A stretch of 64,000 bases of DNA from Chloroflexota bacterium (GCA_965218195.1 OZ244593.1:2853908-2917907); one strand, 5' to 3'. Shown: positions 7,851 through 8,237, counted from the stretch's first letter. The notes: a model not told the origin generated them from the sequence alone. A program made the numbers and translations.

Positions 7851-8190
7851 ATGAAACCAGAGCACCACGAACTGTTGATCCGCGAGCCGCTGATTGACGA
7901 CGCCAAACCCATCGCGGCCATACAGGTCGCGGGATGGCAATCGGCGTTTCGGGGCGTCGCCTCCAATGACTACCTCGACGCACTGGACGCGGCGGCGGAG
8001 GCCGCCGGATGGAGAATCGGCATCGCCCTCCATCCCAACGGCAGCGATGCTTCGTCGCCGAGCTTGAGTCCGAGATCGTCGGATTCGTCACCATCTTCCC
8101 GTCACGCGACGAGAACCTCGATCATGATTACGTCGTCGAGATAGGCGCGATATACGTCAGCCCCGAGCATTGGAGGCGTGGCGTGGGACA
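7851..8190 (+). pseudogene. GNAT acetyltransferase, frameshifted (~8040) and truncated at att junction
   Basis: IRE..DA..IAAIQVAGWQ then FVAE..EIVGF..EIGAIYVSPEHWRRGVG (motif A), after which GNAT similarity stops. Confidence 0.8.
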
Positions 8191-8237
8191 TCGCTGCCAG
8201 TAACTGCTACTCCCTCAGCCGTACGGTCGCCGTCTGA
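8168..8237 (+). other. Hybrid att junction (GNAT half | P' half)
   Basis: 8189-8237 aligns without gaps to the last 49 nt of both LSR genes (CATCGCTGCsAGT..GCTAC..CTC.GCCG...TCGCCG.CTGA). Confidence 0.8.

Follow-up and report, generated by a model that had tools for sequence, protein, structure and literature searches.

Tandem islands integrated by a large serine recombinase (LSR) are known within the Chloroflexota from Dehalococcoides, in which ssrA-specific islands are served by the integrase DsiB, a CcrB-like large serine recombinase (McMurdie et al., 2011, PMC3146451). In the parts of that account drawn on here, these islands lie in tandem at one site and carry cargo and no transfer genes, and the 3′ end of the recombinase gene overlaps the att site, with the stop codon lying in the neighboring island or in the target; the authors suggest that the recombinase gene is complete only on the circular form (PMC3146451). 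LSR-driven tandem build-up of cargo and defense islands at one gene is also described for SCC/SCCmec, where Ccr acts at rlmH (PMC11470126, in the passages cited). Mg-chelatase/ComM homologs are given as the commonest target of LSRs and are targeted by 12.4% of those predicted to be site-specific (Durrant et al., 2022, PMC10083194). Phage WO sr1WO integrates in the magnesium chelatase gene of Wolbachia; WOCauB3 uses a secondary, intergenic site (PMC9203015).

None of the ingredients of the locus described here is new, neither comM as an LSR target nor the use of a pseudo-attB nor tandem LSR islands; what differs is the combination of comM with an intragenic att site, the tyrosine recombinase as partner, the size of the array and its cargo. 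The window, by which we mean the whole 64,000-nt stretch of DNA analyzed, is 2853908–2917907 of a 3.59-Mb single-contig genome (G000). The host is again a member of the Chloroflexota, and the islands resemble those of Dehalococcoides in their tandem position at one site, their cargo, the lack of transfer genes and the overlap of the LSR 3′ end with att; nine such modules lie between the two halves of comM. The differences concern the target, which is ssrA with a 20-bp direct repeat in Dehalococcoides and comM here, the module, which in Dehalococcoides consists of six genes, one of them for a second, small serine recombinase (DsiA), and here pairs each LSR with a tyrosine recombinase, and the extent of the arrays, within 100 kb there and 407 kb here (PMC3146451). 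A secondary-site junction of the kind treated below does not occur in the cited parts of the Dehalococcoides account (PMC3146451). Integration inside a Mg-chelatase/ComM gene, splitting it, is shared with phage WO and the LSRs of Durrant et al., although the cases cited from there are mostly single prophages or elements (PMC9203015, PMC10083194); here, in contrast, the array has many members, the window contains no phage genes, and att lies inside the recombinase gene. SCC/SCCmec differs in its recombinases (CcrB 49 and CcrC 73 bits, against 900), target, host phylum and partner protein (PMC11470126). Integration at chromosomal sequences only partly attB-like is described for phiBT1 in Nocardia, but the cases cited are experimental vector integrations, whereas the present one is natural, lies inside another island and is most simply a deletion (PMC5937489). 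In the literature searched, no description of comM arrays of the present type was found, and "serine recombinase" was not found among the matches listed for sponge/Chloroflexi papers. As an LSR product, the junction in the GNAT acetyltransferase gene described below is an ordinary by-product; the surrounding array is more remarkable and is a variant of the Dehalococcoides type.

The window opens in a preceding island with a tyrosine recombinase gene (812..1813, plus strand; Pfam Phage_integrase, E 1.7e-14), which is XerC/XerD-like with scores under the NCBIfam cut-offs, and an LSR gene (1995..3602, plus strand, 535 aa; Pfam and translation) with the catalytic motif YARVSSDEQ at residues 11–19. 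Next to it lies a 4.6-kb left-end remnant of island B (3556..8188, plus strand; blastn extents and Pfam), consisting of a P′ arm to about 4336, a HEPN gene (4574–5218), ankyrin-repeat genes (5591–6049 and 6464–7777, Pfam) and the 5′ part of the GNAT gene. Island C (8189..41562, plus strand, 33.4 kb; Pfam and NCBIfam) runs from a P′ arm to its own LSR. Its cargo comprises an AbrB/PIN pair, DUF2330, a solute-binding protein, IS3-family copies, a VWA protein, an ECF sigma factor, LRR/fn3/PKD proteins and a type I restriction-modification system, and it is closed by a tyrosine recombinase (38882..39823, plus strand; Phage_integrase, E 7e-15) and an LSR (39999..41609, plus strand; Pfam Resolvase, Recombinase and Zn_ribbon_recom) whose att center CA is placed at 41561–41562 by core location. 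To judge from its sequence, the last 14–16 or so codons of this LSR gene come from the P′ arm of the next island. The resolvase catalytic domain with the serine nucleophile was found in both LSRs of the window (PF00239, E 2e-23 and 1.6e-24). The C-terminal LSR domains are the recombinase domain PF07508 (E 1.6e-17) and the zinc ribbon PF13408 (E 2e-9). The named equivalogs XisF, CcrB and CcrC were rejected (106, 49 and 73 bits against NCBIfam cut-offs of 375, 900 and 900), and the recombinase is an LSR outside these groups.

Positions 7851..8188 (plus strand) hold the 5′ two-thirds of a GNAT acetyltransferase gene, which form the B arm of the junction (translation, Pfam, blastn). The translation of 8027–8200 reads ..VSPEHWRRGVG and then HRCQ-stop. 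The consensus of GNAT motif A is Q/R-x-x-G-x-G/A. Pfam Acetyltransf_1 matches the stump only at profile positions 32–79 of 116 (E 1.1e-10), ending at RRGVG, and matches an intact paralog of the same genome (gene at 204200–204748) at positions 31–113; the complete fold of motif A, following helix and C-terminal part is not found in the stump. With this partial profile, the stump is therefore a truncated, frameshifted GNAT pseudogene. The frameshift stems from the loss of about 4 nt after 8026; the paralog has GIARPPSRRQRC at this point, for which GIA is read in one frame of the window and PPSQRQRC in the other. A contig of run X2 contains four additional letters, CAGA, at 8026–8027, and these restore the frame; thus, an unshifted version of the gene exists in a related strain. 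The stump is 81% identical in DNA to the paralog (204408–204765, blastn), and its closest intact ortholog is P0002, with 93% identity over the 54 aa compared. Short contigs from a run labeled as a sponge metagenome match the stump with 2–3 differences per 150 nt, a hint at habitat only. In all ten intact GNAT homologs read (the G000 paralog, G003, G004 and P0002–P0008), GVG is followed by [RQ]-[AS]LMA.. through ..FYEAGGW.., and none of the ten carries the sequence found at 8189–8237.

The central dinucleotide CA at 8189..8190, in register with the center of a 24-nt core, is the probable crossover point. According to the alignment to LSR ends, 8191..8237 (plus strand) contain the P′ half-site together with what is left of the final LSR codons and their stop, and 8238..8850 (plus strand) are the conserved non-coding P′ arm of island C (three-way alignment, blastn). 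The frame at 8187–8237 reads DIAASNCYSLSRTVAV-stop, and its counterpart is DIAASHSYNLRRVIAA-stop, with which the LSR at 1995–3602 ends. From the CA onward, homology extends over the last 14–16 or so LSR codons and about 600 further bases downstream. The 49-mer 8189–8237 matches the nine LSR-end copies of the genome at 34–39 of 49 positions, without gaps and in register, and these are the nine best matches among 7.18 million positions on both strands; two further matches with 31/49, and probably a third, are additional P′ arms, and the best unrelated match reaches 30/49. Beyond 8237 the homology continues to about 8800 and further in the three-way alignment. By blastn, 8186–8799 is 75.8% identical over 633 nt to a copy elsewhere in the genome (E 1e-123), and the arm matches two other arms with E 3e-124 and 6e-127. 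GNAT homology stops at 8187–8188 and LSR-arm homology begins at 8186, an overlap that coincides with the core center of the eight intact LSR ends. As in an attL, the element arm thus starts at the crossover, at 8189, and the B side is a gene that is uninterrupted elsewhere, namely in the G000 paralog, G003, G004 and P0002–P0008. A preliminary description, made from the window alone, had proposed a GNAT frame ..PEHWRRGVG that switches at GGA|CA, a gap-free alignment of the following 49 nt to the LSR 3′ end and, consequently, a B|P′ hybrid site. Each of these points holds: the CA is the att center, the match to P′ is beyond chance, and the same center is used at the comM junctions.

Within the P′ arm, a terminator-like hairpin lies at 8449–8464, but the scan of 7700–9900 yields no more hairpins than shuffled sequences do. 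A promoter scan of the same range gave no sites, and an Rfam search of 3400–9800 gave no matches at E up to 1. Every P′ arm contains, close to its right edge and about 650 nt past the LSR stop, the strongly conserved sequence TTTTTGCCAGCAAAGGTAGTGTTTGCTGG (window 4155–4185, 8773–8801 and about 42200), in which an 8-bp palindrome encloses a 7-nt loop; it has no Rfam match.

The 3′ end of the LSR gene contains a 42-bp inverted repeat, GTAG-N5-ACTCGCA-N10-TGCGAGT-N5-CTAC, which lies 14 codons ahead of the stop in each of the eight LSR genes whose 3′ end is complete. The geometric center of this att site is CA, located in the window at 3554–3555 and 41561–41562; the first of these complete sites covers 3534..3575 (sequence reading, core search). 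The junction at 8189 contains the right half of the 42-bp site, in register with the 24-nt core center. CA stands exactly 4 nt before the P′ heptamer in all seven B|P′ junctions (five genomes) and at the center in all four P|comM junctions, and from these junctions a 2-bp crossover center in a quasi-palindromic att site of about 40–50 bp can be deduced. The P′ heptamer at 8195–8201, TGCCAGT, is exactly complementary to the P heptamer at 41550–41556, ACTGGCA, a variant that only one of the nine LSRs has, i.e., the one at the right end of island C. This covariation is a single case and weak when taken alone; at the other TGCCAGT arm (G000 3155399), the LSR of its island has ACTCGCA.

In the whole chromosome, nine LSR genes, each with a tyrosine recombinase upstream (tblastn), lie on the plus strand between 2.80 and 3.18 Mb. 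They share 78–90% protein identity and none has an internal stop. Eight of the 3′ ends run into a P′ arm and one into comM: the ninth LSR (3179325–3180884) is cut at residue 521 and continues into reverse-complement comM, ending ..LVAAMNPCPC. In a whole-genome Pfam search, comM is split into a part with Mg_chelatase positions 1–162 at 3180871–3181359 and another with positions 159–206 and Mg_chelatase_C at 2772901–2773356. At 2773355 (comM-C|P′), ..CPCGYLGD.. is joined to a diverged P′ arm with the frame TRASMNYNLRRVLVP-stop, and the P|comM-N junction is found 407.5 kb away at 3180881. Therefore, 407.5 kb, or 11.3% of the chromosome, lie inside comM, bounded by P′ at the left end and P at the right, with eight complete P|P′ sites between. 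Read from these sites, the stretch is a tandem array of islands of about 25–75 kb. A large share of the LRR, RCC1, ankyrin, restriction and toxin genes of the genome lies within it. The LSR ends E2893 (window 39999–41609) and E2941, the next copy, are 78% identical over 400 nt left of the center and 98% over 400 nt right of it, the change in relatedness falling at the CA; the row of the comM-left arm, for which short local alignments gave 100%, was excluded from the identity matrix. The 3.5-kb module of tyrosine recombinase, LSR and arm was considered as the whole mobile unit and rejected, since 407.5 kb separate the two parts of comM, P′ standing at one end and P at the other, and the similarity switches at the center.

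Close homologs of the LSR occur in 4 of the 40 related genomes searched (G002 with 23 matches, G001 with 11, G006 with 10 and G004 with 4), the other 36 giving none at E ≤ 1e-30; a wider search of contigs returned 32 loci, all from the same four genomes. In G002, the 23 matches include 20 full-length LSRs, an LSR truncated at residue 521 and another that is divided into two pieces. An LSR fused to comM is found in three of these Chloroflexota genomes (G002, G004 and G006) and, together with G000, all four genomes with a comM-fused LSR have the P|comM junction at the same codons. The comM-C|P′ junction is also present in G004 and G006, and about 230 kb separate the comM halves of G004. In G003, which belongs to the same genus and gave no LSR match, comM is uninterrupted, with an open frame of 539 aa, and supplies the empty attB. 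Among the seven B|P′ junctions in five genomes, three are in comM, one is in GNAT and three are at other, unrelated places (G001 C2:62114, G002 87118 and G002 3176353). Two further pattern matches with three mismatches, G004 2634593 and G001 2603423, were dismissed as chance, as they have no arm homology.

Some observations on these relatives may be added. If the single contig of G002 is circular, its 20 full-length LSRs and the comM-fused one extend over about 0.97 Mb, starting at 3133245 and passing the contig end to reach 298717, which amounts to about one quarter of the 3.8-Mb genome. The comM C-terminal part was not found in G002, and two LSR copies are on the opposite strand, hence the array is rearranged there. 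G003 has a second comM C-terminal fragment (C4:251269–251559, a 112-aa frame) near a contig end, which may represent an unassembled array or a mix of strains.

Comparison of the half-sites shows how closely the GNAT gene approaches the comM target. The comM B half and the P half share 10 contiguous nt, CACACGGGCA (G003 attB and the LSR at G000 3121285), and the comM B half agrees with the common P half at 9 of 11 positions; the corresponding count for B′ and P′ is only 5 of 13. The GNAT B half has only GGACA in common with the P half (5/10 nt) and matches the comM B half at 4/10. Its B′ half was deduced from homologs that are 77–81% identical in DNA. Over the 12 nt after the dinucleotide, the three homologs with readable DNA have 6–9 of 12 matches to comM B′ 12-mers, the best being the G000 paralog against the empty comM site of G003 (9/12) and the other two reaching 6–8/12; the genome-wide frequency per position is 6.8e-4 for at least nine matches to these 12-mers and 4.1e-3 for at least eight. 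As far as these homologs reflect it, the GNAT site is similar to attB on the lost side and poorly similar on the retained side. The center dinucleotide in all three readable homologs is CG, not CA; P0002 reads GVG-Q-ALMACAID, with its Gln codon (CAR) at the position of the CA. An exact 24-mer scan of metagenome contigs for the empty GNAT site found no stretches, and a related-locus search for the DNA of a close P0002 ortholog gave nine loci, all with at most 48% identity.

Based on these results, we propose, with a probability of roughly 85%, that the junction at 8189–8190 is a product of the LSR, made from attP and a pseudo-attB in the GNAT gene used as a secondary site. The attP would lie within the recombinase gene's own 3′ end, as the 42-bp inverted repeat with its center CA, and would have recombined with the look-alike pseudo-attB in a GNAT cargo gene of a neighboring island, with GNAT-5′|CA|P′ as the joint retained by the chromosome. 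comM, at the codons N-P-C-P-C-G, is the regular target, where islands have accumulated successively; the last 14 codons of an internal LSR therefore come from the P′ arm of the next island, and only the last LSR of the array reads into comM. As judged by the distribution of junctions, comM is the primary target and GNAT the secondary, pseudo-attB site, since only one of the seven B|P′ junctions is in GNAT and the LSR is fused to comM in 4/4 genomes. Nor is GNAT a regular target, because the intact paralog in G000 is unoccupied despite nine LSR genes. The mapped att site and its center, the primary target comM and the natural pseudo-site inform what this recombinase needs for recognition.

Concerning the history of the junction, the preliminary description had placed the GNAT 3′ half behind another LSR, and this expectation failed: none of the nine LSR ends runs into GNAT, and a tblastn search of the genome with the 69 C-terminal residues encoded by the paralog recovers nothing but this paralog (next E 0.49). 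Likewise, a reciprocal P|B′ junction with the GNAT 3′ half was found neither by tblastn of the genome nor at the nine LSR ends. Since the GNAT 3′ half is absent from the genome, a cis deletion made by the recombinase is the simplest history. In this event the GNAT pseudo-site would have recombined with a P|P′ site downstream in the chromosome, in direct orientation, and a circle with P|GNAT-3′, the island B cargo and a recombinase module would have been discarded. We lean toward this cis deletion as what probably happened.

A less probable but serious competitor is that circular island C inserted into an intact GNAT gene and that later recombination at attR exchanged the GNAT 3′ part for the next P′ arm. 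The unit-like appearance of island C agrees with such an insertion, in that its divergent P′ heptamer TGCCAGT complements the ACTGGCA of the likewise divergent LSR at its other end, yet this coherence is equally expected under cis deletion; the 8189 arm is read as the left end of island C under either history. Reactions at attR-like sites, as the second step demands, are required by the array itself. Nevertheless, two events of the same chemistry are assumed where one suffices, and neither a P|GNAT-3′ junction nor a GNAT 3′ half is present in the genome.

An illegitimate deletion without the recombinase, running through the microhomology GGACA and ending by chance at an LSR 3′ end, is improbable. 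GNAT and the LSR end share only these 5 nt at the joint, an identity that could equally serve as microhomology and so speaks against an LSR origin, and the array is rich in IS copies and rearrangements. However, in a conserved module of about 3.5 kb the endpoint coincides with the 2-bp center of a 42-bp site, the same center is used in six other B|P′ and four P|comM junctions from five genomes, and the GNAT B′ side deduced from homologs resembles comM B′.

Still less credible is a regular, multi-copy attB formed by the codons of motif A in GNAT genes, which was one of two options in the preliminary description; the other one, a relaxed secondary site, is the one that stands. The cut does fall at a conserved motif, and a stretch similar to comM B′ follows directly in the homologs, but only 1/7 B|P′ junctions is in GNAT, comM is the site in all four genomes with a terminal LSR, and the homologs in G000 (204200–204748), G003 and G004 are unoccupied.

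A chimeric assembly of two unrelated places can practically be dismissed, although the genome is a single contig assembled from a metagenome in which many modules are repeated. In run X6, a contig of 1047 nt spans 7520–8566 with six differences and no gap, and the 8189 arm, 65–79% identical to the other arms over 400 nt after the center, is too diverged to mislead an assembler. The contig joints listed include none linking 3555 to 8190 and none with an empty GNAT gene or an excision; such contigs cannot show absence.

Turning to the array as a whole, growth could occur at attR, where the P half mimics the comM B half. Owing to this similarity, attR (P|B′) would still resemble attB (B|B′) after the first integration, and a second island entering there would turn the old attR into P|P′, shifting B′ outward. 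The observed arrangement, in which LSRs are complete within the array and a single truncated one adjoins comM-N, is predicted by growth at attR. An LSR is normally a one-shot integrase, and recombination of attP with attR is not a reaction of canonical LSRs; growth at attR thus departs from the textbook rule. If the stack does grow by attR mimicry, this would explain how an LSR builds very large accessory regions. Going further, we tentatively consider, as an unlikely but possible extension, that such arrays extend themselves, each attR being a landing pad, and that the complete attP sites and nine LSRs drive deletions and inversions at look-alike sites. If this were true, two products of that activity would be on record, namely the GNAT scar and the arms joined head to head at G000 3155388, and islands of eukaryote-like repeat proteins and defense genes would have been stacked up to 11% of the chromosome in this way.

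The arms just mentioned are two P′ arms that meet head to head at an att center at G000 3155388–3155411 (window +301481). An 8-kb near-copy of the left arm region exists (3415798–3423694 vs. 3147403–3155413, 90–97% identical) and ends in a full att-like site (G000 3423669–3423692) with the center TG on its own sense strand. The head-to-head arrangement fits recombination of a canonical site with a site of opposite center polarity, as far as the arm sequences suggest; a reciprocal product was not found in G000.

The conserved recombinase module starts sharply at ACACATAG.., about 45 nt upstream of the tyrosine recombinase start, in all nine G000 copies (in the window at about 770–812 and 38840–38882, with seven further copies elsewhere in G000). 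Upstream of this point the copies differ or form subfamilies, and the module edge may mark a shared promoter or a second site of recombination.

The remaining contents of the window are listed briefly. IS3-family insertion sequences are found at 13029–14227, 27638–29000, 43440–44800 and 46101–46913; one such element occurs twice in identical form within the window, and about 30 occurrences of its 60-nt end were counted in the genome. Large eukaryote-like repeat proteins (LRR with beta-propeller, RCC1, fn3/PKD) are dense in the islands, at 17654–24770 and 47431–63719, and include inverted paralogous pairs at 47.4–49.8 kb and 55.3–57.6 kb that are 73–85% identical. Finally, the type I restriction-modification operon carried as island cargo at 30383–37192 (minus strand) is complete, with HsdR, HsdS and HsdM.
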